Assembly: GCA_002753335.1 (NCBI GenBank)
Contig: PEAD01000003.1
Location: forward strand, 62,001-126,000
DNA from: Nitrospirae bacterium MYbin3
GTDB taxonomy: Bacteria; Nitrospirota; Thermodesulfovibrionia; Thermodesulfovibrionales; Dissulfurispiraceae
DNA length: 64,000 nt
Reading direction: 5' to 3'
Shown here in pieces: positions 11,717 to 41,539 of this stretch. The translations under genes were made by a program, and so were the position numbers. The notes beneath the pieces are model-generated. The model had not been told where the DNA came from and searched no databases. It saw only the letters and a list, made by a program, of their open reading frames with translations. Each line of letters starts with the position of its first letter. Position 1 is the first letter of the stretch.

Positions 11717-11722
11717 CATTCA

Positions 11723-15943: not shown

Positions 15944-15944
15944 T

Positions 15945-16553
15945 ATGAAGATGCTGCGATATCTGTTAAGAAACCTAAACACTCTCAACCTTATGTTGGT
16001 TGCTGTATTTCTGGTGATATTAAAATATCTTGCTATGCCGGCGCTTATACCGCAAGATAATTTTAAAACACCTGCACCCAAGAAAGCCGCTGTTCAGCTG
16101 CAGGCAGCAGCTTCTGACAATAAGACCTCTTCACCTCTTGACTATGCGCTGATAGCCGAGCAGAATCTTTTTCATCCCGAGCGCAAGATACCGATAGAGA
16201 GCAAAGATGACAACCAGGCGCCTAAGCCGGAGTTTGTTCTTTACGGCATATTGGCAACCGAAGATACAATGATAGTCTATCTCGAGGACAAAAAATCGTC
16301 ATCATCTTCTCCGGGGCGGGGGAAAAGGCAGCAGGCTTTGAAGCGTGGCGATACTTTAAGCGGTTTTAAGCTGGAATCTATAGAGGAAGACAGGATTGTA
16401 ATGACAAGGGGCGAAGAGAAGATTACGGTATTGATAGATGAAAAGCAGCGCCAGAGGCAGAAAGCTGTAACAGGTTCTGGAGGGACCGAACATAAATTGC
16501 CCCAGCAAACACAGCCGCAGCGTCAGCCGATCGTAGTTCAGCCAAAGAAATAA
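15945..16553 (+). CDS. GspC-like protein (TM segment + HR/PilP-like domain)
   Basis: TM anchor, NLFHPER, LYGI...LKRGDTLSGFKLESIEEDRIV. Confidence 0.6.
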   Translation: MKMLRYLLRNLNTLNLMLVAVFLVILKYLAMPALIPQDNFKTPAPKKAAVQLQAAASDNKTSSPLDYALIAEQNLFHPERKIPIESKDDNQAPKPEFVLYGILATEDTMIVYLEDKKSSSSSPGRGKRQQALKRGDTLSGFKLESIEEDRIVMTRGEEKITVLIDEKQRQRQKAVTGSGGTEHKLPQQTQPQRQPIVVQPKK

Positions 16554-16560
16554 GGATAGA

Positions 16561-18546
16561 TTATTTTCCGTTTGATTCTGTTGCAGACTCTTTTTCTACG
16601 GGAGCCAAGCTTTTCTGCAGATCTTTTTTGTTTATCTGTTTGGTTCTGTTTAGATATCCTGAAGAAACATCCTGCGCATCCTGCTGGCTTTTGATCACAT
16701 GGGTGGTTATCAGCATCAGCAGTTCTTTTCTCTGCTCGTATTTGTGTTTGTAACCGAACAGATAGCCCAATATAGGTATTTTGCTCAGGTATGGAATGCC
16801 GGCGCTGTCAGGTTTTTTGTCTTCCCGTATAAGGCCGCCTATTACAATAGTCTCACCGTCTTTCGTAACAAGATTTGTGTTGACTTCGCGCTTTGAAACA
16901 GCTACCTGAGCACCGCCCATAATAGTTATCAATGAATAATCCGAAACCTCAAGGGCAATGTCTAGAGTTACAAGTCCGCTTTCGTTAATCTGCGGCTTTA
17001 CCTTTGATATTATGCCTACATCCTTATATTGAATGGAGCTTGTCTGGGTGGGCGATACTCCTGTTCCGGTGGTAGCGGTGGTCAGAGATGTGAGGATAGG
17101 CACCTGATCTCCTATCTGTATCCTTGATTCGCGGTTGTCCAGCGCAAGGATATGCGGAGATGCGAGTATATTCACTCTGTTTTCGGTTGCGAGAGTATGT
17201 ATCAGATTTCTCACAACACCGGCAGCATCCTTTGCTATAAAGGCAAATTCACTTAATCCTGTAGTGCTTGTTACGGTGCCAAGATTCCCTTGGTTAAATC
17301 CGGTTTCGGTATTGACCTTAAGCTTGCTGAAGGCATCCATCCGGATATTTCCTCGAAGCGACCATTCTATACCGAACTTAAGGTCATCCGTTAGGGTAAC
17401 CTCAGCAATAAGCGCCTCGATCATCACCTGACGCGGGAGTATGTCTATTTTCTTTATCGTCTCTTCGATTGTTTTGTAATCTTCGGGAGTGGCAAGCACT
17501 ATCAGTGCATTCGTAACATCATCAGCGAATATTTTGGTTATGTCGGATACTATTGTTTCCCCGCCCTTTGGTATTCCCGTAACCTGCGGCTGCTGCGGCA
17601 CAGTAGCAACCGGCTGCTTTGTTGTCGTTGTTGATGTGGTTGTAGCTGTCTGGGGAGTGGATGATTTTGCGCCCAAAAATATCTGCTGCAGAATATTTGC
17701 GACATCCTTTGCCTTGCTGTTTTGCACAGGGTAAACGAAGACTTGCGGGTTGGTCTTTTTTGCCGACTCATTATCGAAGATGTCAACGAGATGCAAGAGG
17801 CGTTTTATGTTCGCATCCGTGTCAGCTATTATCACATGGTTGCTTTTGGTCACATCAATTATTAAGGCATTGGCAGAAAGAAAAGGGGTAAGAATTTTTA
17901 CAAGCTCTATCGATTGGATATACTTGACAGGGATGACCTGAATCAGGGCCTTGCCGATGATTTTCACCTTTTCGTATTCTCTGCCCAGTCCCAGGGGGCT
18001 TGGTTCGCGGGCTATATCAGCAATAGGGATTATCCTGTAGAGTCCTCCATCTTCAACAATGCCTATTCCGTTCAGTCTGAGTATTATCTGCATCAGCGGC
18101 AGGACATCCTCTTTAGATATTGGCGCTACAGACCTGAAGTTGACCTTGCCGCTCACCTTTGAGTCTATAAGATAATTGACCTTTAGTATGTCTCCGAAAA
18201 TTGTTTGAATTACAGAGAAAATATCTGCATCATCAAAATGAAAGCTCACCTGTCCTTTTTTCAGTGTGGATTGCTTTGTTTCTGCCTGCGGCGCTGCCGG
18301 CATCTGCGGCTGCTGCAAAGGCTCAACAGTAAGAGGCTCCTGTATTGTTGGCTGCAACTGTACAGGCTGAAGCTGAACAGGCTGAGTTTGCACCGGCTGC
18401 AGCTGGATTGGTTGAACAGGGTTCTTTATTATATTTGATGCAGGCGACTGTGGCGCTGCAGAAGGCTCCTGTGCTGCAAAGAGTGCCTCTGAATTTAAAT
18501 TTACGAGAAGGCCAAGCAGAAGGCCTAATGTTAAAATTCTGTACAA
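16561..18546 (-). CDS. gspD: Type II secretion secretin GspD
   Basis: N0/N1/N3-type domains, PRQVMIEALIAEV, GETIVIGGLI, GIPYLSKIPILGYLFG; TTG start with AAGGAG RBS; PVQLQ-type repeats in N-terminal linker. Confidence 0.92.
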   Translation of the reverse strand: MYRILTLGLLLGLLVNLNSEALFAAQEPSAAPQSPASNIIKNPVQPIQLQPVQTQPVQLQPVQLQPTIQEPLTVEPLQQPQMPAAPQAETKQSTLKKGQVSFHFDDADIFSVIQTIFGDILKVNYLIDSKVSGKVNFRSVAPISKEDVLPLMQIILRLNGIGIVEDGGLYRIIPIADIAREPSPLGLGREYEKVKIIGKALIQVIPVKYIQSIELVKILTPFLSANALIIDVTKSNHVIIADTDANIKRLLHLVDIFDNESAKKTNPQVFVYPVQNSKAKDVANILQQIFLGAKSSTPQTATTTSTTTTKQPVATVPQQPQVTGIPKGGETIVSDITKIFADDVTNALIVLATPEDYKTIEETIKKIDILPRQVMIEALIAEVTLTDDLKFGIEWSLRGNIRMDAFSKLKVNTETGFNQGNLGTVTSTTGLSEFAFIAKDAAGVVRNLIHTLATENRVNILASPHILALDNRESRIQIGDQVPILTSLTTATTGTGVSPTQTSSIQYKDVGIISKVKPQINESGLVTLDIALEVSDYSLITIMGGAQVAVSKREVNTNLVTKDGETIVIGGLIREDKKPDSAGIPYLSKIPILGYLFGYKHKYEQRKELLMLITTHVIKSQQDAQDVSSGYLNRTKQINKKDLQKSLAPVEKESATESNGK

Positions 18547-18680
18547 AGGAGAGCTCCTTGCATTATCATAAATATCTGTTCAGGATAATTTAGATGGAAT
18601 ATTTTGTCAAGTCTTGTTTTGTTTGATTGCGTTATGGTATATCTGCCTTCAATACTAAAGATACAGCGAGGTGTTAAGCA

Positions 18681-19109
18681 ATGAAATTTAAAAGTCTAAT
18701 ATTTAATAGAAGGGGTTTCTCTCTTGTAGAGCTTCTTGTGGTTATGGTCATCATAGGATTGCTGGCATCTTTAGTTGCGCCTAAATTATTTCCCAAACTG
18801 GGCAAAGGCAAGCAGGCTGCTGCAAAGGCCCAGATAGAGTTGTATGGTGAGGCATTGGATCACTTTAGGCTTGATACCGGACGCTATCCCACCACACAGG
18901 AAGGATTGAATGCACTGATAACTAATCCCGGCGGTGTTGCCAAGTGGGAAGGCCCGTATCTGAAAAAAGGTATTGCGGCAGACCCATGGGGTGCGCCGTA
19001 CATATATCAGGCACCCGGTACGCATGGAGACTATGATTTATCATCTTACGGAAGGGATGCAAAGCCGGGCGGCGAAGGTGAAGATGCAGATATTTTTAGT
19101 TGGCAATAG
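18681..19109 (+). CDS. gspG: Major pseudopilin GspG
   Basis: GFSLVELLVV, YPTTQEGLNAL, WEGPYL, DPWG, GGEGEDADI. Confidence 0.95.
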   Translation: MKFKSLIFNRRGFSLVELLVVMVIIGLLASLVAPKLFPKLGKGKQAAAKAQIELYGEALDHFRLDTGRYPTTQEGLNALITNPGGVAKWEGPYLKKGIAADPWGAPYIYQAPGTHGDYDLSSYGRDAKPGGEGEDADIFSWQ

Positions 19110-19266: not shown

Positions 19267-19282
19267 TGGTACAATAATTGCA
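19267..19282 (+). promoter_or_regulatory. Sigma54 (-24/-12) promoter
   Basis: TGGTAC-AATAA-TTGCA matches TGGCAC-N5-TTGCW with exact spacing, upstream of RBS GGGAGGG and ATG 19320. Confidence 0.75.
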
Positions 19283-19319
19283 AATACTTACACAGCAATT
19301 CCTATATCGGGAGGGAAAA

Positions 19320-22313
19320 ATGCTGGAAAATATACTAAAAAAGACAAGGGATGTGGATAGAAAATCAAGCCTCTTTGCATTGTTGCTGCTCGTGTTGGCG
19401 GCAGCTATTGCGGTAAGCAGCGTAGCTGAGGCTGCCTTGTCGGTAACAAATGCGCCTTCTATCTCTACACAATCTTATGGAAACCCGGTAAGAATTGCTA
19501 AAGACAAAGCAGGTCTTATATATGTAACAATCCCAAGATCAGGTAAGGTATTAATATATTCCCAGAATGGAGCGCTTTACAATTTAATAGAGAGTTCTTT
19601 TAGCAAGCCCCTGTCGATCGCAATTGACAATCAAAATAGAATATATGTTGGCGATGAAGCAGACGGCAGTGTAACGGTTATTGATTCCACCGGTAAATTT
19701 CTTTTTAAATTAGGTGTAGGTAATGGCGAGTTTGGGTTGCCGAACGATATAGCTATTTCATCCAGTGGCAATGCTTATGTTGTTGACAGTAAAAACAACA
19801 CCGTAAAGATGTATTCAAAAGAAGGGCAGTACTTGGGTGTGTTCGGTGGCATTGGTTCAGCTGAAGGTAAGTTTAATTTCCCAACAGGTATTGCAATAGA
19901 TGATACAAAGGGTGAGGTTGACGGAAGTGTTTATGTTGTTGACTTTAATAATGCAAGGGTTCAGATGTTTGATTTAAGTGGATCCTTTAAGAAGAGCTTT
20001 GGAAGTTTTGGAGACGCGGTTGGTCAGTTTGCAAGGCCTCAGGGAATTGCTGTTGCAGAGGGTTATGTTTTTGTAACTGATGCTTACAACGCAAAGGTTC
20101 AGGTTTACGACACGGCAGGAAACTATCAGAATAATGATATCGGTTCTTTTGGGACCGCTGTCGGAAACCTGAAGGTTCCTATGGATATAGTAAAGATCGG
20201 AACTAAGATTTATGTAACAAATTCGGACAACGCAAGAATAGAGGTATTTGAAGTAAAAGATCCTAATGGCCTTACAATAACACCGGCATCGGTTGTTTTA
20301 GATTACGTTATAGGTAAGGATTTTGCTATTTCAAGCAACGCTAATGTTGAGGCGCAGGGAACGACAGCGCTTTCGTGGACCGCAAGGTCAGATGTTGATT
20401 GGCTTACCTTTCCAGCTTCTGGCGATACCACTCAATCAGGTGTGCAGGTTTCTTTAAATCAGAATATAACCAACCTTGCAGAAGGTGTATATACAGGCAG
20501 AGTAATGTTTCAGGCTCAGAATGGATCTGATTATGTTTTGACCGTTACCGCAAATGTTAAGCAGAAATATGATCTCAGTGTATCTCCGGCAGCTTTAAGT
20601 ATCGCTTACAATCAGAATCTTGCATCAACAGCCAAGACATTGAATATTAGCGCAGGCAACGGAAAGCTTACATGGACAGCCGTATCAAGCGTTAACTGGT
20701 TGGATGTTGCCGCATCAGGCACAACTCCGGTTGCTATCCAAGCTGTGCTTAATAATAATGCAGACTATCTTGCAGCGGGTGTTCATTCAGCATTTGTCAC
20801 CATTAATGCTCCCGATGCATCCAACAGTTCAGTAACAATTCCGGTAACGCTGACAGTAAAGAAAATAGCGGTATCTTCCGAAAGCATAAGTGTAACCCAC
20901 AAAAAAGGCAGTGCGCTTGAAACTGTATCGGTTGCGATTTCGGGTGGTGTTAATTGGGTAGCATCCAAGGACGCCTCTAACTGGTTCTCGATTGCTCAGA
21001 CAGCAAGCGGTGTTGTTATGTCTCTTAATCAGTCGGTTGAGCAGATGGGTGGTGTATCTAATGGGTCAATAACAATTACGGTTGCTGATGGCTCTGCAGC
21101 AAACAGCCCGTTGGTTGTTCCTGTTTCGGTAAGCTCGATAAGCGCAGGCAAGATAGTGGTATCTTCTAATATTGATCAGTCTGTATTTAGCATAAGCGGT
21201 CCAGCAACACTTAGCGGCGCAGGAAAGGCTTGGGTAAAAGATGAAGCTGTTCCGGGCATATATACAATTACATTTAATAATATTCGCGGATACAGAAAAC
21301 CTGCTACAAAGACTTTTGAGGTATTCAGCGGAAACACAGTTACCCTTAATGGTTCTTACAAGCAGAATGCAGTTGCTAATGTTGTTGCGGTCACTCAGGG
21401 GCCGGGATCGCGGAACGATGCTAATGTTAGGCTTTTGGACTTAAACGGCAATCTTATAAATGAGTTCAGGGCTTTCAGTTCTAAATACGGAGCAAAAGTT
21501 GCTATGGGTGATGTTGACGGCGACGGATCATCAGAGATAGTTGTCGGCAGCGGTGCAGGTTCGGATATAGATGCGGCCGTTAAGGTGTTCAAGTACAACG
21601 GCTCGCTGATGGCTTCCATAGGTGCTATCGCAAATACCTCTTACGGCGCAAACGTAGCCGTGGGTGATATTGACGGTGACGGTACAAGCGAAATTGCGGT
21701 AAGCACGCTAGATGATGTGTTGAAAACGAATAAAGTTTCGATTTACTCGTATGACATTAGTAACAGACTTGTTGAGAAGGGATCAGTAACTATTGCTGAT
21801 GGCAGCAAATATCCTGCTAATATCGCATTTGGTGATGTGAACAATGACGGCAGGCTTGAGCTGATTGTTGTGGGGTCTAAGAATATCAGCACATATACTG
21901 TTAATGGCAGCGTTGTTGAACTTTACAACACTGTAGCATTGACCGTAAGCAGCGGCTTAGATTATGCTGCACAGATGACAATCAGTGCTGGTGATGTGAA
22001 TGGTGACGGGATGGATGAAATTCTTTTAGGATATGTTGATAATAATGATTCGGTAGTCGGCGTTTATAGCGGCAATATGTCAAGCTTTATGTATGCAGTA
22101 AATGTTTTTGCAAACGGCAAATCAGCGCCTTCCATATCTTGCATGGATTGGAGCGGCGAAGGCATAATGGAAATAATAGCGGGTCAGGGTGCAGCTTCTG
22201 ACGGAAGGTCGGCAGCTAGAATATTCGGTTCAGACGGTTCGCTGGTAAAAGAGATAAATGCCTTTAGGGCATCTAAATATGGCGTGAATGCAGCGTTCGG
22301 AGTTATAAAGTGA
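19320..22313 (+). CDS. Secreted NHL beta-propeller / BACON-like Ig repeats / PEGA-like / FG-GAP repeat protein
   Basis: Signal peptide; about six NHL repeats (F..P.GIAV..D..N.RVQ.F); W.A.S.V.WL BACON-like repeats; GDVDGDG/GDVNGDG FG-GAP motifs. Confidence 0.82.
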   Translation: MLENILKKTRDVDRKSSLFALLLLVLAAAIAVSSVAEAALSVTNAPSISTQSYGNPVRIAKDKAGLIYVTIPRSGKVLIYSQNGALYNLIESSFSKPLSIAIDNQNRIYVGDEADGSVTVIDSTGKFLFKLGVGNGEFGLPNDIAISSSGNAYVVDSKNNTVKMYSKEGQYLGVFGGIGSAEGKFNFPTGIAIDDTKGEVDGSVYVVDFNNARVQMFDLSGSFKKSFGSFGDAVGQFARPQGIAVAEGYVFVTDAYNAKVQVYDTAGNYQNNDIGSFGTAVGNLKVPMDIVKIGTKIYVTNSDNARIEVFEVKDPNGLTITPASVVLDYVIGKDFAISSNANVEAQGTTALSWTARSDVDWLTFPASGDTTQSGVQVSLNQNITNLAEGVYTGRVMFQAQNGSDYVLTVTANVKQKYDLSVSPAALSIAYNQNLASTAKTLNISAGNGKLTWTAVSSVNWLDVAASGTTPVAIQAVLNNNADYLAAGVHSAFVTINAPDASNSSVTIPVTLTVKKIAVSSESISVTHKKGSALETVSVAISGGVNWVASKDASNWFSIAQTASGVVMSLNQSVEQMGGVSNGSITITVADGSAANSPLVVPVSVSSISAGKIVVSSNIDQSVFSISGPATLSGAGKAWVKDEAVPGIYTITFNNIRGYRKPATKTFEVFSGNTVTLNGSYKQNAVANVVAVTQGPGSRNDANVRLLDLNGNLINEFRAFSSKYGAKVAMGDVDGDGSSEIVVGSGAGSDIDAAVKVFKYNGSLMASIGAIANTSYGANVAVGDIDGDGTSEIAVSTLDDVLKTNKVSIYSYDISNRLVEKGSVTIADGSKYPANIAFGDVNNDGRLELIVVGSKNISTYTVNGSVVELYNTVALTVSSGLDYAAQMTISAGDVNGDGMDEILLGYVDNNDSVVGVYSGNMSSFMYAVNVFANGKSAPSISCMDWSGEGIMEIIAGQGAASDGRSAARIFGSDGSLVKEINAFRASKYGVNAAFGVIK

Positions 22314-22330
22314 AAGGGAGGAGGATAGTC

Positions 22331-23434
22331 ATGCCGGCAATATTAAGATATAGTTTGGTTGCGATTTTTATGTTGGGGTTGCTGTTGGTTCCTTTCACAA
22401 AGACTTCAATGTCTATTGAGACCATGCCTCCTCATAGCCCTGAGCTGAACAACAGCATCACATGCGCTTCTTGCCATACGTTTAGTGATGCACTGGGCCC
22501 AAGCAGCACAAAATATGCAAATGACAACCTTTGTCTAAGCTGTCATAAGTCGGGAGGGCTGGCTTCAGCTTCGCCTTTTACTTCTAGCGATCAGGCAAAA
22601 CCGGGCATTGACAACGGAACATCTCACAGTTGGAGCGGGACGATGCCGGCTGCTGATAACACTAGTAATCAGTATGGATTAAGATCCGCTGCGAGCTTAA
22701 CACTAAATAAAGATACTCGCAGAGGAACTACACCGTTAAAAACCTCACTGACAAAATTCGGTGGTACTGTGGCTTGCTCTACATGCCACAATATACATAC
22801 TCACTGGGGCAGCACATGGGATCAGGGCCATGAAACTAAAGGCACAGCAACATCGGGTAGCACCACTACTTTAACCGATAGTTCTAAGAACTGGGCAACT
22901 AATCAGTTTGCAGACAATAAAACCTATTTGGTTTTTAGTGCAGTATATGGAGGGCTAAACGGAGGTCAGTACCGTTTAATTACGTCCAATACATCTACGA
23001 CATTGACTGTTGCGGCTTTCGGCAATACAATACCTGCCGGTGCAAAGTATTTCATATCTAAAAACAGACGTTTTCTCAGGGTTGACAATGCTGCAAACGA
23101 AATGTGTAATGACTGTCATTACTACAGGACAGCCGCCAGCGGTCAGGCTACCCAGACTAATGTTAGGACATGGAACAACGGATTGAAAAAGAGTCATCCT
23201 GTGAGTGTTCCTTTGGTAGGCGGTACTACATATAATTCGGTTCCACTTGAGCCTGCAGCTGCAAGCTTTGCTGCGCAAACTGGATCAAGGTATGCAAGCA
23301 ATGGTGGCACTGATAATAACACGTCAAACAACATGGTTTTTGATAATTCAACAGGAACTCCGAAAATCAGCTGTATGACATGCCATAAAGTGCATTTCGC
23401 AGACTCGGATTCGGCAACTAATGACGCTCCATAG
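22331..23434 (+). CDS. Secreted pentaheme cytochrome c (doubled-CxxCH type) with inserted beta domain
   Basis: Five CxxCH (CASCH, CLSCH, CSTCH, CNDCH, CMTCH); signal peptide; RBS GGAGGA before ATG 22331. Confidence 0.9.
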   Translation: MPAILRYSLVAIFMLGLLLVPFTKTSMSIETMPPHSPELNNSITCASCHTFSDALGPSSTKYANDNLCLSCHKSGGLASASPFTSSDQAKPGIDNGTSHSWSGTMPAADNTSNQYGLRSAASLTLNKDTRRGTTPLKTSLTKFGGTVACSTCHNIHTHWGSTWDQGHETKGTATSGSTTTLTDSSKNWATNQFADNKTYLVFSAVYGGLNGGQYRLITSNTSTTLTVAAFGNTIPAGAKYFISKNRRFLRVDNAANEMCNDCHYYRTAASGQATQTNVRTWNNGLKKSHPVSVPLVGGTTYNSVPLEPAAASFAAQTGSRYASNGGTDNNTSNNMVFDNSTGTPKISCMTCHKVHFADSDSATNDAP

Positions 23435-23467
23435 TATGAAACATATAAAATGCTCAAGGGGGAAAAT

Positions 23468-26400
23468 ATGAGTTACAAGATATCATCGAAGCTTACAGCA
23501 GTATGCGCACTAATAAGCTTCCTCCTGATTTCATATTCCATTACAAAGGCGGCCATCGGCGTCGGTGATGGTAATCTTTTGCGGCGCTCGCAAGAGGAAA
23601 CCTGTCATGCGTGCCACAAAACCGACCAGAATGCCCCCAACGATAACAGCTCAATAAAGACCCACAGCTCCGAATGGGCAGGCAGCTGTGATAACACTTC
23701 ATTTATAAGAAAAAGTGCTTGTATTAGTGCTGGGAAAGTATGGACTCAGAAATGGACCGGTTGGGGTGATAACACGACCGCAAAGTATGGAAAGATTGTA
23801 TGTACAACATGCCATACAGCGCATGATACATCAAATATATATCTTATAAAAGAAAACATCACTTCCCCCAAAGTTGGTGATAACTTTCCGGGGTCAGCAG
23901 TTGATTTCAGGGTTCTGACAGGTGTTGCAGGTACAACATTAGGTACTATGGGCGATGACAACATAACACATACAACGTCAACAAGGGTTTGCGAAGTTTG
24001 TCACACACAAACTAAATATCATAATTATAACAGGGCATCAAATATTGACAACTCACATAATAACGCAACTAACTGCGCTACATGTCATCAGCATAGCAGA
24101 GGTTTTGCAGCAGGCGGTGCATGTAATTCATGTCACGGTTCATCCGGTTCGACCGGAGCGCCGCTTATAGCAGGCGATTTGGTTACCGGCGGCAATGCAA
24201 CTGGATCAACAAACTATGGCAAACATCAAAAGCATGCTGCAGATCTAAACATTGCGTGCGATGTATGTCACGGCGCTTATGTTATGCCGGAAAATACAAC
24301 ACATGCTATTGACATTGGCTTCAGCGGCAATGCAGTAATAGGGGCAGTTGTTCCTTATTATAATGGTCAGACCACCGTTACTAATTATACCTATCGCTCA
24401 AATTCTGCGACGACAGGCAAAGACGGGTCGATGAATTGTACAGGAATATATTGTCATAGTAACGCACAAGGTGCTAATGGGTCTGGCACTCCAAGTTCAT
24501 TTGGAACGCCCTCATTTAGTTCAGCATCAGCCGCAATGACATGTGCTAGCTGTCATAAGGATATGAAAACAGATGCGACGCCAACAGGTAGTCATAAAAA
24601 ACATGCTAACGCATCTACTGGATATAATATGAGTTGCAGTGTTTGTCATACAGGCTACACAGATAATTCGACTAATGCATCTACTCACGTTGACAAAAGC
24701 ATAAATGTTGCCATTAATGCAACTTACGGTGGAACATACGCGGGCACATCGACACTGGGAGACGGTTATTCAACATGTTCGTCAGTCTATTGCCATTCCA
24801 ATGGTACTAATTTTGTTACTCCTGGAACACCAAATATCGCTCCAACATGGGGCAATACTTTAGTTTGTAATGGATGTCATGGCGATAACAGTAGCACTAG
24901 TGGTATGCCAAATTACACATCAGGTTCGCCTAAGGCCAATAGCCATTATGTTCATGTTGTTACTAGGTCGATGGGTTGTCAAAACTGCCATGCGGATACA
25001 ACAACAAGTGGTACTGCAATCGATAACAAAACAGCACATACAAATAAAGCCTACAACATAAATCCTACAGGTACTTATAATAGTCAGGCAGTCACTTTTG
25101 TTAAGAATGGCAATACTTCGCCGGTTTCTTGTAACACCATTAGCTGTCACGGCGGTCATGCTGCTGCATCAGTAACATGGGGTGTTTCTCCTTCATGTAA
25201 TAACTGTCATGGCGCTAGCAACAATGGTGATTTAAGTGGAAATCATGCAAAACATTATAATAGCGCAACACCAGCAACATCTCATACTGGAGCAGATAAC
25301 CATACCGGAAGTGGCTATGTTTTTGGTTGTGTGAATTGTCATCCGTCTGCAACCCATATTTCGGGTCCTGTATCAAATAATATTCAGGATGCGGAAGTAA
25401 ACGGAACAAAGCAGACTTCTGTTAACTATACTGCCGTACCGGCAAGCACAGCGACAGACGCTAAGGGTTTCCATTACACGCCAGGCACATGCTCCAACGT
25501 TTGCCATACAAAGGATGGCGTAACACTTGGTTCGGCCATTACAGCTACTCCTGCATGGAACGGCACGAATGCTCTAGGTTGCGGTTACTGTCATAGCAAA
25601 GCTGGAGATGGATCACCGACTTGGTCTTCGTCACACACTCCGCATATGTCTCAGGCAAATGTAACCTGTAACTATTGTCACAAGGCTACAGCCGATAACA
25701 ACACAACTGTCAGCAACCGTTCAAATCACCCGAATCAGAACGTGACGATTAACTTTAATGCATCAGCAGCTTCCAATGCAGCGGCTACATATAAAGGCAA
25801 TACTGCAGGCGGAGCCACTGTATATCAAACCACTGCTGGTACTTTTGGAACATGTGCGACCACAACATGCCACGGCGCATCATCACCGACATGGGGAACT
25901 GCCACAAGCAACGATACCTGCACAAAATGTCACGGTACTGGGACCGTTACGGTTAATGCCGCAAACAAGTATGTTATAGCGCCACCTAGAAATCTTGCAG
26001 GCGATAATGGAACAGCAACAGGCACCGGTCAGGTAAGCAATGATGCAAAGGTTGGGGCGCACCAGACACATCTGCGGTTGCTGAATGGTTTAAGGCTAGA
26101 TAACGAGACAATTGAGCAGCGTTGCGAATATTGCCACGGAACATTGCCTGTAAGCGGTATGCATGCAAACGGCAGCTCAACACCAGCATTCCAAGGCCTT
26201 GCAACCAAAAACGGGGCAATGTCAGCATCATACGCTAGCTCGACATGCTCGAACACCTATTGTCACAACCCAGCAGGGACGGGCGGAACACTTGCTTCAG
26301 GTAATGCCGGCACAGGTATTGCTCCTAGATGGGACAATGCATCTTATATAGCAGACGGTACGCTTAAGACAGAGGCTAACTGCAATGTTTGCCACAAGTC

Positions 26401-26929
26401 ACCCGGTACAGTTGCCGGTACCATAACAATTGCGGGAACAGACCACGCAAGTGTAGCAATTGGAGATAATTGCGCTGGATGCCATGGTCATAATGGTGAT
26501 ACAGCAGGTTCAGTAGGTCAGAGGCATATGGATGGCATTAAGTATGGTGCTGGGTCGTGTAATTCTTGCCACTGGTTTGACAATGCTACCGATGCAACTG
26601 CATGGACTACTACAAAGGGTTCCAGCGGGTTGCTTACAAACACTGCTTCGGCATGGGGCGCTCATAATAAGCATATTAACCATCTTAAGACGCGCTATGG
26701 TGTGTCGTGGACTAAAGATAATGTCACCTATGGTTCAGGAAGTTATAACTTGGTTTGCGGTGTTTGCCATACGCAGACTGGCTCTGAACATATGGTGGGT
26801 GCACGCAATATTAACTTTAATGACAGTACAGCACACCAGTTTGGTCTAAGTAAACCTATCTTTGACAATGTAACAACGCGAACTTGTTCTAATCTCGATT
26901 GCCATTTCAAGGCATCGCCAGTGTGGTAA
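23468..26929 (+). CDS. Large secreted CxxxxCH/CxxCH multiheme cytochrome c (about 27 hemes)
   Basis: Hand count: 20 CxxCH, 6 CX4CH, 1 CX3CH; Geobacter-type CxxxxCH...P.W...CxxCH repeats; signal peptide. Confidence 0.92.
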   Translation: MSYKISSKLTAVCALISFLLISYSITKAAIGVGDGNLLRRSQEETCHACHKTDQNAPNDNSSIKTHSSEWAGSCDNTSFIRKSACISAGKVWTQKWTGWGDNTTAKYGKIVCTTCHTAHDTSNIYLIKENITSPKVGDNFPGSAVDFRVLTGVAGTTLGTMGDDNITHTTSTRVCEVCHTQTKYHNYNRASNIDNSHNNATNCATCHQHSRGFAAGGACNSCHGSSGSTGAPLIAGDLVTGGNATGSTNYGKHQKHAADLNIACDVCHGAYVMPENTTHAIDIGFSGNAVIGAVVPYYNGQTTVTNYTYRSNSATTGKDGSMNCTGIYCHSNAQGANGSGTPSSFGTPSFSSASAAMTCASCHKDMKTDATPTGSHKKHANASTGYNMSCSVCHTGYTDNSTNASTHVDKSINVAINATYGGTYAGTSTLGDGYSTCSSVYCHSNGTNFVTPGTPNIAPTWGNTLVCNGCHGDNSSTSGMPNYTSGSPKANSHYVHVVTRSMGCQNCHADTTTSGTAIDNKTAHTNKAYNINPTGTYNSQAVTFVKNGNTSPVSCNTISCHGGHAAASVTWGVSPSCNNCHGASNNGDLSGNHAKHYNSATPATSHTGADNHTGSGYVFGCVNCHPSATHISGPVSNNIQDAEVNGTKQTSVNYTAVPASTATDAKGFHYTPGTCSNVCHTKDGVTLGSAITATPAWNGTNALGCGYCHSKAGDGSPTWSSSHTPHMSQANVTCNYCHKATADNNTTVSNRSNHPNQNVTINFNASAASNAAATYKGNTAGGATVYQTTAGTFGTCATTTCHGASSPTWGTATSNDTCTKCHGTGTVTVNAANKYVIAPPRNLAGDNGTATGTGQVSNDAKVGAHQTHLRLLNGLRLDNETIEQRCEYCHGTLPVSGMHANGSSTPAFQGLATKNGAMSASYASSTCSNTYCHNPAGTGGTLASGNAGTGIAPRWDNASYIADGTLKTEANCNVCHKSPGTVAGTITIAGTDHASVAIGDNCAGCHGHNGDTAGSVGQRHMDGIKYGAGSCNSCHWFDNATDATAWTTTKGSSGLLTNTASAWGAHNKHINHLKTRYGVSWTKDNVTYGSGSYNLVCGVCHTQTGSEHMVGARNINFNDSTAHQFGLSKPIFDNVTTRTCSNLDCHFKASPVW

Positions 26930-26940
26930 GGGGGATGGAT

Positions 26941-29520
26941 ATGATTACACTAAAAATGATAAAATCAAAAATTGCTGAATCGGGGATAGTTAGGAGCAAC
27001 AAACCTATAAGAGGGCGAGGTGTGGATAGAATGGGACCGATAAATACCGCTACTGAAAAAGGTACATCTTGGAAAATGCGCTTTAGCCTCGTGCTGGTTA
27101 TTGCCTTGCTCTGGTCTGCTTATATGTTTTTAGGAGTGGATGGTATAAACCAAGCGCAGGCATCGGGTGTAATAAATAGTTGCAACCCATGTCATGGTGA
27201 CAACAACAGTTTTAGGGACAACTCAACTCATAGAGATCCGGTGCTCGGCAGATTCCCCGGCTCGCATAACAAGCACGCTGATAACTCGACAGGGTATGGT
27301 TATGTATGTACTACTTGCCATATAAACAATACGACATTTGGACACCAGAATGACAATATAACCATGGCAAGTCCGATAACCGGTACTGCTGGAAGTTATT
27401 CAAGAGGCACCACATGGGTTAGGGATAATAACACTGGCGGTAAAGGCACTTGCAGCAATACATATTGCCACGGTGATGGTACTTCAGTTGCAACTGGTAA
27501 TGTAAAAGCCAATACATCTCCAACATGGGGCAGCAGTGGTCCGCTAGCGTGTTCAACATGCCACGGATACAGTCCGGCGTATGCAAATCTTAAAAAATCG
27601 CCAACCGCAGCAACCGGTACAAACTGGACATTACCCGCAGCTGTAACCAAGGATAATGGCACATATGCTACATATGCTAATACAGCACAGAACTATTTAT
27701 TTGCTACCAATTTGGGATATTCCACTTCAGATGTTCCAGACAACACTACAATACTTGGTATTGCTGTTATTGTTAGTGGAAATAGCGCTAATGCTACTGC
27801 CGCCAATCGCGCTATTAAGGTCGGTCTTACAAAAAATGGTACTGCAGTTGTTGGTACGACTCAAGCATTTATTCTGCCGCTAAATTATGATAGTCCTACT
27901 TTAAGCGGTGGTCCCGGTAGTTTATGGGGTACAACATGGACACCAGCAGAAATTAGGGCAACAACATTTGGGGTTGCTATCGCAGACAATGATACAACAA
28001 GCGCAATTTTTAAAATTAATTCTGCTAAAGTTGTTGTCTATACTACTGATGCCCCAAAGATGAACAGCCATCAGGGACCTAGCCACAGTGTGGCTGGTTG
28101 TGCAAAATGCCATAATAAAACTACGACCGATAATACAACCATTACTAATAATAAGATGCATGGTAGAGGCCAATATAGTGTAGATAATCAATCCGGAACT
28201 ACTTTTACTTACACATATAGCTCTGGTGGAGGCACATGCGCAACAATAAGCTGTCATGGCGGTGGTTCTGCACAGTGGGGTGGACAGCTTGGCTGTGTTA
28301 ATTGTCATAGCGCTGCAGTAAATACAACCGTAGCTAAGGCTCTTGATGCAGCGGTAACGACGCGGTCTGCTATAGTGCCATCATTTGTGGCTGCTTCAAG
28401 CCATGTTCGTTCAAGGGGCGGAACAGTGACCAATAATGACTGCGGTGTCTGCCACATGGAAGGCAGCAGCCAAACAGGGCTACCCAGTGCAACTTATCAT
28501 GGTAACGGATATATTGATCTGCGCGACCCAGATTCAGGAACAGCAATTACTGTAGCGACATGGTCAAATTCACCAGCAGGTCCCGGTAGCTATTCAAGTG
28601 GCGCTACCCCTTTAAACGATAATGCTACAACTACTAACAGGCTTGTCAGATTCAGCAGGAACCTTGCTAGTGCAACTCTTGAAGTTCAGGCTGTTTCAAT
28701 AATGATTAACCAGTGTCTTAAGTGTCATGATGCAAATGGTGCAAATGCAGCCGATAACTCATCTAGAGTTCCGGGAGGCACAGCTACTAAGCCGTTTGCC
28801 ACGACTGTAGCAGCAAACCCGTCAGGTGCTGTGCTTGATGTAGCAGCTCAGTTTGCGTCAACTAACAGGTCATATCATCCAATAACGGTTAAACAGAATA
28901 ATGGTTATGCTGGTGGTACGAGAATGCTGGCGCCATGGAATGCTGTAACTAAATCAGCTACCACTACAGTCTGGGGTCCGCTAATGACCTGTTGGGATTG
29001 CCATGCACCGAATGCTTCGACCGGCACTTTAACTACATCTGGCATTCATGGAGGTGCAGTTAATGGAACGGATGCTGTTCCGTTAAGGGGTAATGTGTAT
29101 ACAGCTGGTGGAACAACAGCAACAAACCTCTGTGCCAACTGTCATTATCTTAACCCCACTAACACAACTCATGGTACGGGATCTGCCTTAACAAGCTCTC
29201 CTAATGGTAGTATGACGTACTTTAACAACCAATGTTACTATTGTCATGGATCATATTCAACACGTGCAAGTGCCATTAGACCGTATGGTGCTGGCGATGC
29301 GCATGGATACAACACTCGTGTAGCTGGCGGTGCATTTGCTGCAGCTCAAGGTTATGCTTTTATCCGTCACGAGGGTTTTTACGGAGGTACATATAACCAG
29401 ACAGTAAAGCAAGTTGGTGCTACTACATATACCGCACAATGCTCTGGTGTGTCTAATACTACTGGCGGCGCTTGTAGTCGTGGCTCCATGGGTAACTACA
29501 CTCCTGGTGGTATCTATTAA
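26941..29520 (+). CDS. Secreted CxxxxCH/CxxCH multiheme cytochrome c (about 12 hemes) with inserted jelly-roll-like domain
   Basis: Hand count: 10 CxxCH and 2 CX4CH; signal peptide ending AQA; start uncertain (26941 has RBS AAGGGGGA). Confidence 0.9.
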   Translation: MITLKMIKSKIAESGIVRSNKPIRGRGVDRMGPINTATEKGTSWKMRFSLVLVIALLWSAYMFLGVDGINQAQASGVINSCNPCHGDNNSFRDNSTHRDPVLGRFPGSHNKHADNSTGYGYVCTTCHINNTTFGHQNDNITMASPITGTAGSYSRGTTWVRDNNTGGKGTCSNTYCHGDGTSVATGNVKANTSPTWGSSGPLACSTCHGYSPAYANLKKSPTAATGTNWTLPAAVTKDNGTYATYANTAQNYLFATNLGYSTSDVPDNTTILGIAVIVSGNSANATAANRAIKVGLTKNGTAVVGTTQAFILPLNYDSPTLSGGPGSLWGTTWTPAEIRATTFGVAIADNDTTSAIFKINSAKVVVYTTDAPKMNSHQGPSHSVAGCAKCHNKTTTDNTTITNNKMHGRGQYSVDNQSGTTFTYTYSSGGGTCATISCHGGGSAQWGGQLGCVNCHSAAVNTTVAKALDAAVTTRSAIVPSFVAASSHVRSRGGTVTNNDCGVCHMEGSSQTGLPSATYHGNGYIDLRDPDSGTAITVATWSNSPAGPGSYSSGATPLNDNATTTNRLVRFSRNLASATLEVQAVSIMINQCLKCHDANGANAADNSSRVPGGTATKPFATTVAANPSGAVLDVAAQFASTNRSYHPITVKQNNGYAGGTRMLAPWNAVTKSATTTVWGPLMTCWDCHAPNASTGTLTTSGIHGGAVNGTDAVPLRGNVYTAGGTTATNLCANCHYLNPTNTTHGTGSALTSSPNGSMTYFNNQCYYCHGSYSTRASAIRPYGAGDAHGYNTRVAGGAFAAAQGYAFIRHEGFYGGTYNQTVKQVGATTYTAQCSGVSNTTGGACSRGSMGNYTPGGIY

Positions 29521-31093: not shown

Positions 31094-32344
31094 ATGAATA
31101 AACTAAAATGGAAGATTCTAGCAATTGTTCTTGTTCTGATATTTGGAGCTTTTTTTCGTTTTTGGTGCTCCTTTAGCGTTCCTACATATCAATTCGATGA
31201 AGGTCTTGTTGTTCCTGCGGCTAAGAGCTTGCTTCAATATGGAACAACTACTGAAATGCAATGGCTGCATCCTCATTTAAACCTTATCATTTTGTATAAC
31301 ATGATCAATGTTTTTGGCGATAATCCGTATGGTTGGAGAATAAGCAATATTTTTTTTGGAACGGTCTCAATTTTTCTAATTTATCTAATTGGCGTAAAGC
31401 TCTATCCAAACACTAAAGTCCCTATCCTTGCATCATGTATTCTAGCGTTTGACCCGTTTCATGCTCATTTTTCGCGTACTGCCTTTATGGAAATTCCGAC
31501 CAGCTTTTTCTTTTTGCTGTTTTTTTATTTTATGATCGAATATAGTGAAAATCGCCGTTCAGTCTTAGTTTTAGCCGGCATCGCATTGGGGTTGACAGTG
31601 GCTACCAAAGCCTATTATTTTTTTGCGATCCCGGTGGTTGTACTTTACACTCTCTACCGGGTGTGGCAGAGAGGAGATTTATCTCATCTTGTCTGGATAG
31701 ATTTTGTGGTTGCACTTGTTATTCTCCCTATAGGCATTTATCTTTTGTCTTACTTCCATTGGTTCGGCCGGGGATATACGCTTCCAGAGTTTTTCGCAAT
31801 GAAAATGGATGCAATTTGGCTGCAGCAGAATTTTTCATTAGATGATTTTGAAATCCCTTGGTACATAGAGGTAGGGGGAAAACCTTGGCAGTGGTTTCTT
31901 CGACCATTCATATCAGGACACCAGATATTTTCGGACGGTGAAAATGGTCGGTTTCTTCTGGAGATTAATAACCCACCTTTTCGTCTGATGGTGATACCTT
32001 CTTTAATTCTGGTCAGTGTATATGCATGGAGAACGAGAACCGTTCAGGAATTATTAGCTCCGATGCTTTTTGTTGTATGTTATTTTATTTTTCTGATAGT
32101 GGATAGACCTCTATTTAGCAGCAATTCTGTTGTATTACTGCCATTTGCATATTTAGCGGTTGCTAGTGCAGTTGTAATCTTTGCACGATGGCTAAATAGA
32201 GAAAAGCAGGTATATTCATTTTTTATATTCGGAGTCGTGGCCTGGGGATTATACACATTCCCTCTCATATCGGGAGAACTGGTCCCTATCTCTTTTTACC
32301 GCCCATTAATATCTATTGCAAGCATTATAAGGGCTTACTACTGA
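31094..32344 (+). CDS. Polyprenyl-phosphate-dependent GT-C glycosyltransferase (ArnT/PMT family)
   Basis: FDE acidic motif, HP, GWR, polytopic membrane profile, PWQW PMT-like loop. Confidence 0.8.
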   Translation: MNKLKWKILAIVLVLIFGAFFRFWCSFSVPTYQFDEGLVVPAAKSLLQYGTTTEMQWLHPHLNLIILYNMINVFGDNPYGWRISNIFFGTVSIFLIYLIGVKLYPNTKVPILASCILAFDPFHAHFSRTAFMEIPTSFFFLLFFYFMIEYSENRRSVLVLAGIALGLTVATKAYYFFAIPVVVLYTLYRVWQRGDLSHLVWIDFVVALVILPIGIYLLSYFHWFGRGYTLPEFFAMKMDAIWLQQNFSLDDFEIPWYIEVGGKPWQWFLRPFISGHQIFSDGENGRFLLEINNPPFRLMVIPSLILVSVYAWRTRTVQELLAPMLFVVCYFIFLIVDRPLFSSNSVVLLPFAYLAVASAVVIFARWLNREKQVYSFFIFGVVAWGLYTFPLISGELVPISFYRPLISIASIIRAYY

Positions 32345-32946
32345 TGCTCCAGAGGGGCATCACTATTGCTAGCATTGTTGTATTTACTACAAGCGTAGTT
32401 TTCCTTTCTTTTATTTATGGACCTTCTAAAAGAACTTTTGTTTCACCCGGAAAAGTTGAACTGCTCACCTCACCAATAGATATTTACGAATTTTGGCACT
32501 CAACAAAGGTTAGGGGGCGTGTAGCTGTCCTATTTACACGACATCTTGATTCTGAAATTGGACTGAGCGAGGAGCCAGGAGAAAAATATACCGAACTTGC
32601 AATGCGTCATGGAATTGTAAGAAAAATTTACCATGTTGTTCCGGATAGTGTGTGGCCGGTTGTTTCTGATAATTTATATCGTCGTAAATTTGCCCGTATT
32701 ACGTCATACGGCTTTGTGATGGCGCTTGCAAATGGAAGGATACATGTCCTCCCTCTTTCTCGTTTCAATCCAGAAGACGAAAAATCACTGATAGTTGTAG
32801 AGCCTAGTGTATGGAGCAGTGATGAACTTGCAAAGATTGTTAAATTGATTAAATCAGGAAATCTCAGAACAGATATTATTACTATTGTTAGAGGTTTTTT
32901 GTCTGATGCAGAAACTTTCCGATCTGTTCTGCCTCCTTCCATGTGA
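32344..32946 (+). CDS. Hypothetical membrane-anchored protein
   Basis: 200-aa ORF overlapping the GT-C stop codon; N-terminal TM segment. Confidence 0.65.
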   Translation: MLQRGITIASIVVFTTSVVFLSFIYGPSKRTFVSPGKVELLTSPIDIYEFWHSTKVRGRVAVLFTRHLDSEIGLSEEPGEKYTELAMRHGIVRKIYHVVPDSVWPVVSDNLYRRKFARITSYGFVMALANGRIHVLPLSRFNPEDEKSLIVVEPSVWSSDELAKIVKLIKSGNLRTDIITIVRGFLSDAETFRSVLPPSM

Positions 32947-32964
32947 AATGACCAGGGGACTATA

Positions 32965-33891
32965 TCAAAGTGAACGATACGGTTTTCGAAAAAAGCTCAT
33001 TCCATAAAGAGACAGATGTCGCATATACTTAATGTGTTTTCTTGTATATATGCCACTCAGCATAAAGCTTAAAACATGCAGGCTTTCCACAATAGGCAGG
33101 TAAAGATATGAGCGCTTCAATTGGCGGACAAATGAAGGATTGTATGGTGGATTTAAATATATAGTTTCCAGTGGCTCAAATCCAATTTCTTTTGCTAAAG
33201 CCTCAATTTTAGTTAAACTTACTGCCTCTTCCCTATCATCGAAGTAAACATCGTGACGGAGTGGGCTTATGTACAGAAGGCGGCGCAATATAAAAGCATC
33301 GTTTGGTTCAAATACAATGAGCACTCCCCCTTCCTCGAGAGCGATAAACGCTTCCTCAATTGCCAGGCTTCTTTGCTTTTCATTCAGATGATGAAGACTT
33401 ACCCAGAATGCTGCTGTCTGCAGAGTTTTGGGGGCAAAGATTGGTTTTGTTATATCTGCCCATATACGTCGCAGAGAGTGGGGAGCATATTTAAGTGTCG
33501 ACATGCTCGCATCACACACGAATACTTCTGCCTGCTCAAAGTTTTTCAGGATATATCGTGCGCAGTGACCTTCACCTCCTCCGAGTTCTGCAAAACGCAA
33601 GCCTGCTTTCAGCTCTACACCTGTTTTTTTTAGATGATTACATAGAAGTTTAATCATTTTCTGATAGAGGAGTGGCCGAAAGTATGAAAGCCCTCTGACG
33701 TTTAGATTATCAAAAACCTTCATCTCCTGATTAAGTGTGTCGTCAGCACTACTCCGGTCTAGTAGTAATTCGATTCCTTGCTCAACACTAAAAGATTCTT
33801 TTCCGTCGTTAGTTATAAGACGGTTATCTTGCAAGATGAGAGGCAAACGGGAGAGGGGACTAACTAGTACTGTGGTCTGTTTGTTGGTCAC
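32965..33891 (-). CDS. Class I SAM-dependent methyltransferase
   Basis: ELGGGEG motif I, SLHHL, GGVLIVFEPN; Trm112-like N-terminus. Confidence 0.8.
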   Translation of the reverse strand: MTNKQTTVLVSPLSRLPLILQDNRLITNDGKESFSVEQGIELLLDRSSADDTLNQEMKVFDNLNVRGLSYFRPLLYQKMIKLLCNHLKKTGVELKAGLRFAELGGGEGHCARYILKNFEQAEVFVCDASMSTLKYAPHSLRRIWADITKPIFAPKTLQTAAFWVSLHHLNEKQRSLAIEEAFIALEEGGVLIVFEPNDAFILRRLLYISPLRHDVYFDDREEAVSLTKIEALAKEIGFEPLETIYLNPPYNPSFVRQLKRSYLYLPIVESLHVLSFMLSGIYTRKHIKYMRHLSLYGMSFFRKPYRSL

Positions 33892-35108
33892 GGTGTGTTT
33901 ACTGGAGCATAAAAAAAGTGTTTTTCTAGTTCAGTAGCAACTTTTTCTGGCGTAATCGATGATAGGCAAACATTTTTTTCGCAGGTTTCAGCGTAAAGTG
34001 ACTGCTTGCTGTCGTAAACACACATGCATGGAGAGCAGTACAGGTTGTCTGGATAGAAGGATAGAGAGTTTTTGTTAACAGGTCCGTATAGCACAGGGGT
34101 TTCAGGGCCGAAAAATGCTGCAAGGTTTTTTCCATAAAGTGAGGCAATATGAAGTGGACCACTGTCGTTTGTAATGACGAGTTCTGCTAGCTCAATAAGT
34201 GCGAAAAGTTCTTTGAGAGTTGTATTTCCTGCACAGTTAATAATACGTGCATTGCGTTTAGCGACCTTATTGGAAATCCCCTCTACATATGCATGTTCTG
34301 ATTTGCTCCCTATCAGCAGATAGGTGTACTCAGGATGATGATCAGTCAGCAATTCAAGCAATGAGACAAAGTTTTGCTCCGGCCATTTCCTGAATGCAAA
34401 TAAATCTCCTGAATTAACGTTTATGAGGATGATTCGTTCGGATTTCATCAACTGGAGGCGGGACCGGAGACTTTCTTCCAGTTCCTCTCTAAACGATGGA
34501 AGGACAGACATATAATCTTCCGGCATGACTGTAAGATTAAGCCCAGAAGCATATGCAAGATAAATATCCGAAATATGTCGATAAAAATTGAATGTTACTT
34601 TATGAGTAAGAATGCCTTCAGGTCGAATTCTACGGTGATATAGACCGATTCTTATAGGTGCAGCTGAAACAGCCGAAATAAGCATGGGAAACTTCGCAAA
34701 AAATTCCAGATCGACCGACATATCGAATTTTGTCCTCAGTAATGCTATCGCAATCATGCAACAACTTTTTAAAAACGCAGAAACAGAACTTAGATCAGCG
34801 ATAAGTACTTCATCCGCTATACCGCATAGCGATATCACTTCCCGATAGGAGGTGGCTGTGACAAAAGTAATCTTTGCCTGTGGGTAGTTCCTGCGAAGTA
34901 TAGTAATGAGCGGTATTGAGTGTAGAATGCTCCCCATGCCAAAGTACTTCTGTATCAGTATCCGAGTTACCAGATTGTTTTTCTTTTTCTTTCGTGATGG
35001 CAGTAGAAGATGTTTTATTTGCAGTAGAATCCCGCAAATTCTGCAAAGGAACATTCCCAAACTATCATCGATTATCCTCATGAACCGATATGTCATATTA
35101 TCCACCAT
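33888..35108 (-). CDS. Glycosyltransferase family 9 (heptosyltransferase-like)
   Basis: GMGS, RKWP, ITNDSGPLHIA, FFGPETP, CSPC motifs. Confidence 0.88.
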   Translation of the reverse strand: MVDNMTYRFMRIIDDSLGMFLCRICGILLQIKHLLLPSRKKKKNNLVTRILIQKYFGMGSILHSIPLITILRRNYPQAKITFVTATSYREVISLCGIADEVLIADLSSVSAFLKSCCMIAIALLRTKFDMSVDLEFFAKFPMLISAVSAAPIRIGLYHRRIRPEGILTHKVTFNFYRHISDIYLAYASGLNLTVMPEDYMSVLPSFREELEESLRSRLQLMKSERIILINVNSGDLFAFRKWPEQNFVSLLELLTDHHPEYTYLLIGSKSEHAYVEGISNKVAKRNARIINCAGNTTLKELFALIELAELVITNDSGPLHIASLYGKNLAAFFGPETPVLYGPVNKNSLSFYPDNLYCSPCMCVYDSKQSLYAETCEKNVCLSSITPEKVATELEKHFFYAPVNTP

Positions 35109-35139
35109 TTACCATGTACTTGCCGCTGATGTGGCTGTC

Positions 35140-39316: not shown

Positions 39317-39320
39317 TGCT

Positions 39321-41254: not shown

Positions 41255-41379
41255 TGAAATATCTTGAAAAAGTAATTAGTACAAGTTAAAAAGTTGTGCT
41301 TGTTTAGTATAAAAATATGCTTTTACCTTGTCGTGATGAGGCCAAATATATTTTATCGTATAATATTTTATCATATCTT

Positions 41380-41539
41380 GATGGAATTTGTAGAAACCTT
41401 CTAGGGTACTATCAAGGATGAGTTCTATATTGTGGTGTTCAGAAAAAACTGTACAGTACGCTTGAAGAGTTGCAGAGATACCTTAATCTGTGGTTGAATG
41501 AGTATTAACGAGGAACGAACCCACACAGGCAAATACTGC
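41380..41539 (+). mobile_element. Frameshifted IS481-family (integrase core) transposase remnant
   Basis: Across frameshifts it reads DGIC...TIKDEFYIVVFRK/LYSTLEELQRYLNLWLNEY/NEERTHTGKYC, resembling IS481 transposase C-termini. Confidence 0.72.

Follow-up and report, generated by a model that had tools for sequence, protein, structure and literature searches.

A D-N-x-S/T motif excess in exported proteins of a Nitrospirota bacterium and its co-occurrence with a candidate PglB clade

Three secreted multiheme cytochromes of Nitrospirae bacterium MYbin3 carry many more D-N-x-S/T motifs than their composition predicts. Their genes lie in a 64,000-nucleotide stretch of contig PEAD01000003.1 (assembly GCA_002753335.1, positions 62,001 to 126,000 of the forward strand), called here the window. 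The motif is real, selected and lineage-specific; its excess is restricted to exported proteins, and it co-occurs with one clade of PglB/STT3-type oligosaccharyltransferases. Judged from sequence comparisons, D-N-x-S/T is probably the acceptor sequon of the clade member encoded on another contig (C1) of this genome, which would N-glycosylate exported proteins in the periplasm at Asn residues with Asp at position -1. An earlier reading of the window, hereafter the original prediction, had proposed a selected D(-1)-N-x-S/T modification site; this part stands, as the excess survives correction for composition, is missing from 117 of 119 homologous cytochromes and tracks a single PglB clade.

Results

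D-N-x-S/T is in excess in three secreted cytochromes

The three cytochrome genes are all on the plus strand. The first encodes a secreted pentaheme c-type cytochrome of the paired-CXXCH type (22310..23434, 374 amino acids (aa)), with five D-N-x-S/T sites whose Asp codons are at 22610, 22655, 22913, 23312 and 23342. The second (23450..26929, 1159 aa) encodes a secreted 27-heme CxxxxCH/CxxCH-domain cytochrome of the TIGR01904/PF09698 type, with 20 CxxCH and seven wider CxxxCH/CxxxxCH motifs and 15 sites between 23642 and 26875. The third is an 873-aa open reading frame (ORF; 26899..29520) for a secreted 12-heme CxxxxCH/CxxCH-domain cytochrome with sites from 27199 to 28764, and its real start is probably about 60 codons further in, ahead of a hydrophobic signal. 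TIGR01904 scores above its cut-off of 27 bits in the 27- and 12-heme proteins (96.4 and 61 bits), and PF09698 is also matched.

The fraction of DN dipeptides that are part of D-N-x-S/T, the form in which counts are given below, was 5/7, 15/18 and 12/12 for the penta-, 27- and 12-heme proteins, or 32/37 in total. It was 0/3 in the NHL/BACON/FG-GAP protein encoded directly upstream in the same gene run (19278..22313, plus strand), an internal negative control whose overall N-x-S/T count was 14 against 13.2 expected. All these DN counts of the original prediction were reproduced exactly. The pooled 32 sites compare with 1.93 expected from composition (Poisson p = 9e-28), and 5000 residue shuffles per protein gave means of 0.31, 1.06 and 0.58 (maxima 4, 6 and 5) for the penta-, 27- and 12-heme proteins, all below the observed values. 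Of the 400 a-b-x-[ST] patterns, D-N-x-[ST] ranked first; the runner-up (1e-5) was the heme motif.

Both Asp and Asn are required for this signal: across the three cytochromes, Asn lacking a preceding Asp showed no enrichment of x-S/T (48/175, p = 0.11), and D-[not N]-x-S/T was found in 15/56 cases. Ser or Thr occurred at +1 to +5 after DN in 13, 32, 7, 11 and 12 of the 37 cases, with an excess at +2 only. For an acidic residue at -2 the counts were 3/9 (D) and 2/3 (E), and EN was followed by x-S/T in 3/3 cases, a sample too small for a judgement. At the sites, each of the four Asp/Asn codon pairs is in use (11, 10, 6 and 5) and the flanks are unrelated, so the excess is not a DNA repeat. The earlier remark that x is never Pro holds for all 32 sites and is consistent with a sequon, but carries little weight and is not significant alone because only about one Pro is expected; genome-wide, Pro stands at x in 2/112 exported against 7/113 cytoplasmic sites.

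The motif marks exported proteins genome-wide

Genome ORFs were called mechanically (n = 2729), and, with the three cytochromes set aside, a crude hydrophobicity rule assigned 484 to an exported and 1241 to a cytoplasmic class. An excess was present even in these exported proteins (80/408, observed/expected (O/E) 1.45, p = 1e-3), and none was present in cytoplasmic ones (113/932, O/E 1.04). Within the exported class, D was the sole enriched residue out of 20 at -1, and acidic residues were not enriched at -2 (D, O/E 0.85; E, O/E 1.05). A whole-genome motif count at the DNA level gave a weak signal (356 versus 303 for a shifted control).

The top outliers among the 2729 ORFs, after two of the window cytochromes, were surface proteins: PilP (5/5, with its sites in a low-complexity linker), a 1504-aa surface protein (5/5), a pIII-like protein (5/6), a pilin-like protein (4/5) and PilY1 (6/11). 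Among the 30 multiheme proteins of the genome, only the window cytochromes were enriched, plus two others weakly. A single D-N-K-T site also lies in a low-complexity periplasmic linker of a GspC-like protein in the window (16116..16127, plus strand). The motif thus marks exported proteins genome-wide and not cytochromes alone, and the original focus on cytochromes was right about their strong enrichment but too narrow, since pilus proteins, linkers and a prophage protein carry the motif too.

This prophage protein, the 371-aa pIII-like one, is encoded outside the window in a filamentous-prophage-like run (G000:C50:134-3756) that also comprises an upstream 361-aa ORF (2/2), a 108-aa membrane protein and a Zot-family ATPase whose gene lies downstream of the pIII-like gene. 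The pIII label follows from position and anatomy. The phage seems to use its host's motif.

Sites turn over among homologous cytochromes

From 256 homologues of the 27-heme protein, the best 120 were compared; those with names come from Nitrospirota and Geobacteraceae. Only the 27-heme protein itself and two others, P0003 (11/11) and P0004 (8/9), were enriched; the named Geobacter/Geotalea homologues had no motif excess. The full motif was kept at 16/1455 aligned site positions in homologues without the signature and at 5/45 positions in those with it, where one gene accounts for two of the three rows. Individual sites thus appear to turn over while site density persists.

These figures bear on the possibility that D-N-x-S/T serves these cytochrome folds as a structural turn or for metal binding. 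Loop-rich proteins commonly contain Asx and Ser/Thr turns, and a few sites fall on a family-conserved Asp (at site 170, D in 83/101 homologues). Such turns should be kept in homologues, as the original prediction recognised, and the motif is mostly not kept; it also recurs in unrelated folds and low-complexity linkers. Site turnover among homologues led us to reject the structural explanation, to which we attach almost no probability.

A sequence search of the PDB at E 0.01 returned no match for any of the three cytochromes, and the AlphaFold model of the 27-heme protein (pLDDT 38.5) was uninformative for site mapping or structure search. The "wire" part of the original prediction and its placement of sites in exposed loops consequently stay without support. 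The composition of the flanks around the sites gave a weak disorder signal (0.58 versus 0.53, p = 0.014).

A stand-alone PglB homolog is the candidate enzyme

Two STT3-family genes (PF02516) were found in the genome, one on contig C1 and one on C48. The C1 gene (G000:C1:192425-194479, outside the window) encodes a 684-aa candidate oligosaccharyltransferase scoring above the PF02516 cut-off and lies alone among housekeeping genes, outside any pgl locus. Its model (pLDDT 90.3) has the STT3 fold, with a GT-C membrane domain and a periplasmic domain, and the top Foldseek matches were to Campylobacter lari PglB (TM 0.74-0.79, E = 2e-26). In an alignment with that protein, the EL1 Asp, the Arg147 equivalent, DxD, TITE (TIxE) and WWDFG are all kept, as is the Lys at the DK/MI column, which together with WWDxG forms the Ser/Thr pocket, and both acidic metal-binding sites are present. 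The catalytic motifs are conserved in 118-120 of 120 homologues and the Lys in 119/120. Against the NCBIfam equivalog NF050801 the protein scores 77.7 bits, far below the cut-off of 1300. Members of the clade by name include Deferribacter abyssi, Calditerrivibrio nitroreducens, Geovibrio thiophilus and Ca. Magnetominusculus.

Arg331 of PglB binds the acidic residue at -2 (PMC10859629). The C1 enzyme has Gly in this column, and four close relatives have S, F, M and M. In 106/120 homologues a clade-typical Arg, within G-R-[VI]-D-T-D, lies five positions beyond the Arg147 equivalent, at a place occupied by Tyr in PglB. Four PF02397 initiating sugar transferases are encoded in the genome, none tied to the C1 pathway. 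The clade enzymes (P0121-P0240) themselves carry 70 D-N-x-S/T sites in 16 alignment columns of 49/120 proteins, several of them in external loop 5 and the C-terminal domain.

The second gene, on C48 (G000:C48:9187-11166, in locus L002, G000:C48:7959-13632), encodes a 659-aa PglB-like protein with WWDWG. It directly follows two pilin genes and precedes GT2 and TPR-tailed membrane proteins, and is a candidate pilin-dedicated glycosylation system of a separate clade, as placed by a quick tree of 18 rows that left out five loci without an extracted ORF. We rejected it as a needed determinant of the motif: besides its separate clade, relatives with the C48 type only gave 3/13 in exported proteins (a small sample), and two relatives with the motif, G039 and G051, match the C1 type only.

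Motif and enzyme clade co-occur in Nitrospirota

Cross-genome counts rest on family-targeted loci. Among 60 relatives, strong matches to the C1 enzyme were found in G001, G039 and G051. In 20 cytochrome loci, drawn from all 16 relatives with PF09698 matches, an excess was seen only in G001 (11/11 and 4/7), the sole clade carrier of the 16; the next best locus was from G038 (5/7, p = 0.03). G050, a relative that shows no motif excess, has an ORF of 4454 aa (L062:3217-16581) in which about 81 heme-binding motifs were counted.

In pil loci from 40 of the 57 relatives with a PilP match, enriched ORFs occurred only in the three clade carriers, G001 (3/3 and 2/3), G039 (6/6) and G051 (3/3). Long ORFs of PilY1 loci from 20 of 28 Nitrospirota relatives without the clade gave 19/98 against 20.0 expected. 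For the exported class as a whole, Nitrospirota carriers had 34/60 and 48 other relatives without the clade 89/529.

The association extends to Deferribacterota and metagenomes

Matches to the C1 enzyme were found in 58/61 Deferribacterota genomes, ten of which have only a form of 530-590 aa. Four of the ten short forms were inspected (530-582 aa; L118:9716-11464, L119:9259-10869, L120:9392-10984 and L121:9188-10894); all lack WWD and the clade Arg and keep DxD, and these PglB derivatives are possibly dead or re-purposed. Three of these four adjoin pepA, as does the full-length gene of L004, and one genome (G088) has both forms.

In the exported class, the motif count was 188/467 in 21 Deferribacterota genomes with an intact enzyme, 13/139 in the ten with the short, WWD-less form, 3/13 in three with no match and 23/68 in two with a broken or partial gene. 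Long ORFs of PilY1 loci from all 14 Deferribacterota with a match gave 79/194 against 23.6 expected. With one random protein per family, the median O/E was 2.49 (p = 7e-7) with the intact enzyme, 0.86 with the short form, 3.04 in Nitrospirota carriers and 0.86 in non-carriers. Prepilin-type-centred loci gave 73/239 versus 12/134, one locus contributing 22/36. Metagenome loci around clade genes (n = 79) gave 36/88 for the exported neighbours (O/E 2.8, p = 1e-4 per family). The Thr:Ser ratio at +2 was 70:42 and 125:63 in carriers and 46:43 in non-carriers.

An apparent switch to E-N-x-S/T in short-form Deferribacterota (40/149, p = 2e-4) was discarded, as it was gone at one protein per family (median O/E 1.45, p = 0.2). 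Tandem duplicated clade PglB genes occur at L123:7866-11882 and in G068, G073, G083, G110 and G119; between the two copies there are differences in the clade Arg region or elsewhere, which could give them different specificities.

Such co-occurrence would also arise if another enzyme or a binding protein travelling with this PglB clade reads the motif, for example for another Asn or Ser/Thr modification. Co-occurrence events that are independent are few, and the families screened were PglB and GT-C only, both of which leave room for such a reader. It is nevertheless improbable, as the motif holds the exact N-x-S/T core, shows a Thr bias, is limited to exported proteins and disappears where the pepA-adjacent PglB lacks WWD (four of ten short forms inspected).

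The motif does not follow the distribution of the neighbouring GT-C island

A glycosylation-type island follows the cytochromes (31094..58094). It includes a PMT-family GT-C (31094), GT9 (33888), GT2 (43222), ResB (55296), methyltransferases, radical SAM enzymes and five similar TPR-tailed membrane proteins (41578, 46326, 48037, 52830 and 56409), which we take to be TMTC-like. Its part at 32965-45344, with five radical SAM genes (three of the B12-binding type and two SPASM-like), GT9, GT2 and methyltransferases, perhaps makes a modified sugar or lipid. TPR-tailed GT-C-like proteins are strongly expanded: this genome has 8 matches, and G039, G040 and G051 have 14-19.

The original prediction had left the linkage as N- or O-linked and had suggested comparing cytochromes from genomes with and without this island. 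O-linked glycosylation of Ser/Thr by the GT-C/TPR enzymes would fit with the position of the island directly after the cytochromes and with the presence of such genes in all four Nitrospirota carriers. Comparable islands are also found after the omcE clusters of Geobacter, where they correlate with glycosylation of OmcE (PMC13712944). However, with one island protein as query, homologues were found in 23/61 Nitrospirota genomes, including 9/15 cytochrome-bearing genomes without the motif, and in 1/61 Deferribacterota, where the motif is common. On this distribution we reject the island as the motif determinant and hold the O-linked option to be very unlikely, leaving N-glycosylation with Asp at -1 as the favoured half of the earlier alternative. 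The responsible enzyme is probably the stand-alone C1 PglB rather than the GT-C island, which may glycosylate these cytochromes at other sites or add other sugars.

On the other side of the cytochromes, the gene order runs from a type II secretion cluster (8960..19109, mixed strands) through the NHL gene to the cytochromes and then the glycosyltransferase/TPR island with ResB. GspE, GspD and GspG score above their NCBIfam cut-offs and the GspC-like protein below. The secretin gene gspD (within 16561-19109) is on the minus strand amid an otherwise plus-strand cluster, with gspG after it. From gene position, the type II system is the likely export route of the cytochromes.

Discussion

We propose that the pre-proteins would cross the inner membrane via Sec and that, before or during folding and heme attachment, the C1 enzyme would move a lipid-linked glycan onto Asn. 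WWD would bind the Ser/Thr at +2 and a basic residue the Asp at -1, the clade-typical Arg in G-R-[VI]-D-T-D being a weak candidate for this reader. The type II system would then export cytochromes bearing about one glycan per 75 residues, up to 32 on about 2400. Because a site needs Asp, selection for more glycans would have led to the gain of D-N-x-S/T words in variable loops and linkers.

Several points weigh against this proposal. We infer the transfer, its specificity, the glycan, the substrate contact and the export route, and the exported and cytoplasmic classes depend on the crude hydrophobicity rule. The co-operonic secreted NHL protein has no site. Arg is present at the 331 column in 58/120 clade homologues, and the tails of long clade forms (710 aa or more) have N, E, K and D at -1 of their sequons; the rule may thus not hold clade-wide. 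In two clade enzymes Trp replaces the candidate Arg, and their neighbours still have 2/2 and 2/3 sites. "Cytoplasmic" ORFs of the metagenome loci were also raised (28/135, p = 0.003), which repeated homologues and fragments of exported proteins partly explain. Some genomes with an intact enzyme gave weak signals in the sampled loci (G066, 4/30; G079, 3/23; G091, 1/11; G088, 1/8; G068, 0/4), and PilY1 had 0/4 in G061 and 0/3 in G074 despite an intact enzyme. One Nitrospirota relative, G034, shows no motif signal (1/14) and has a 91-aa open frame (G034:C17:40667-40822) that shares 48% identity with the C-terminal end of the C1 enzyme, either a remnant or a contig-end fragment. Finally, kin are not independent, and independent gains or losses number only about three or four.

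The same PglB might instead glycosylate plain N-x-S/T, blind to -1, with Asp selected for another reason such as an occupancy-favouring turn geometry, a later glycan-tailoring enzyme or a charge beside the glycan. Relaxation at both -2 and -1 is known from Desulfovibrio PglBs (PMC4894442, PMC12229607), no residue has been tied to contact with the -1 side chain, on which nothing was found in the literature, and long clade members vary at -1 in their own tails. Yet only Asp-preceded sequons are enriched, both in the three cytochromes and in Deferribacterota with an intact enzyme, where p was 2e-33 for D at -1 and 0.02 for the next best residue (O/E for E, 0.67), although enrichment is not occupancy. 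In human proteins, Asp is under-represented at -1 of glycosites, where it reportedly lowers efficiency (bioRxiv 10.64898/2026.09.03.749169). We consider an enzyme blind to -1 unlikely.

Compared with the PglBs of Campylobacter jejuni and C. lari (D/E-x-N-x-S/T; PDB 3RCE, 5OGL and 6GXC), the C1 enzyme shares the fold and the catalytic motifs, and in both systems the sequon would be extended by an acidic residue and lie in flexible segments of exported proteins. Here, in contrast, Asp is the only acidic residue selected and its place is -1, D/E is not enriched at -2, Gly replaces Arg331, and the enzyme is 19% identical, below the equivalog cut-off and encoded outside a pgl locus. Desulfovibrio PglBs (D. 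gigas and D. marinus), with HmcA as substrate, likewise provide a bacterial PglB without a -2 rule acting on a multiheme cytochrome (PMC4894442). DmPglB is relaxed at -1, accepting nearly all residues with a slight Thr preference (PMC12229607), whereas a single -1 residue is selected here, and the HmcA site, TANGT, has Ala at -1 (PMC4894442), unlike the Asp here.

The Deferribacter desulfuricans PglB (Mills et al. 2016, Glycobiology 26:398) probably belongs to this clade, judging from the proteins of Deferribacter abyssi, Calditerrivibrio and Geovibrio, which match the C1 enzyme at 38-43% identity, and from the matches in 58/61 Deferribacterota genomes. The excerpts of papers that cite it as a characterised oligosaccharyltransferase give an altered specificity and mention no -1 rule (PMC6025236, PMC6494827, PMC7313396). 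The sequon result of Mills et al. might contradict the -1 rule, and so count among the points against our proposal, or might anticipate it. The -2 rule and relaxed enzymes have been described (PMC4894442, PMC12229607, PMC10859629, PMC8342417, PMC8479172), and an Asp(-1) sequon rule was not found in our survey of the open-access literature.

The OmcE/OmcS nanowires of Geobacter are likewise extracellular multiheme cytochromes encoded beside an NHL gene, with a glycosyltransferase/TPR island (GT2/GT4/GT39-TPR) behind, and their filaments are reported to be glycosylated at the surface (PMC9473688, PMC13712944). Unlike these, the window proteins are of the TIGR01904/paired-CXXCH types and have no PDB match.

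What is new here is the link of the D-N-x-S/T excess to one PglB clade, which would be a new variant of bacterial N-glycosylation if confirmed. In a broader form, whose chances we hold to be evenly balanced, a widespread, hardly studied PglB clade acts under a strict minus-one rule and places dozens of glycans on pili, secretion parts and extracellular multiheme cytochromes, and resident phages have taken over the code for surface proteins of their own. The clade would then span most Deferribacterota, some Nitrospirota including magnetotactic ones and many marine metagenome lineages, and D-N-x-S/T would join N-x-S/T and D/E-x-N-x-S/T as a third sequon code.

How extended sequons are specified is a central issue in N-glycosylation, and an Asp(-1) rule, if true, would show how the peptide pocket is re-programmed, in contrast with the human oligosaccharyltransferase, which disfavours Asp at -1 (bioRxiv 10.64898/2026.09.03.749169). 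It would also offer a sequon potentially orthogonal to DQNAT for glycoengineering and would make the glycoproteome of most of a phylum predictable from sequence alone. Some extracellular electron-transfer cytochromes would then carry about one glycan per two hemes, which would bear on their solubility, protease resistance and insulation.

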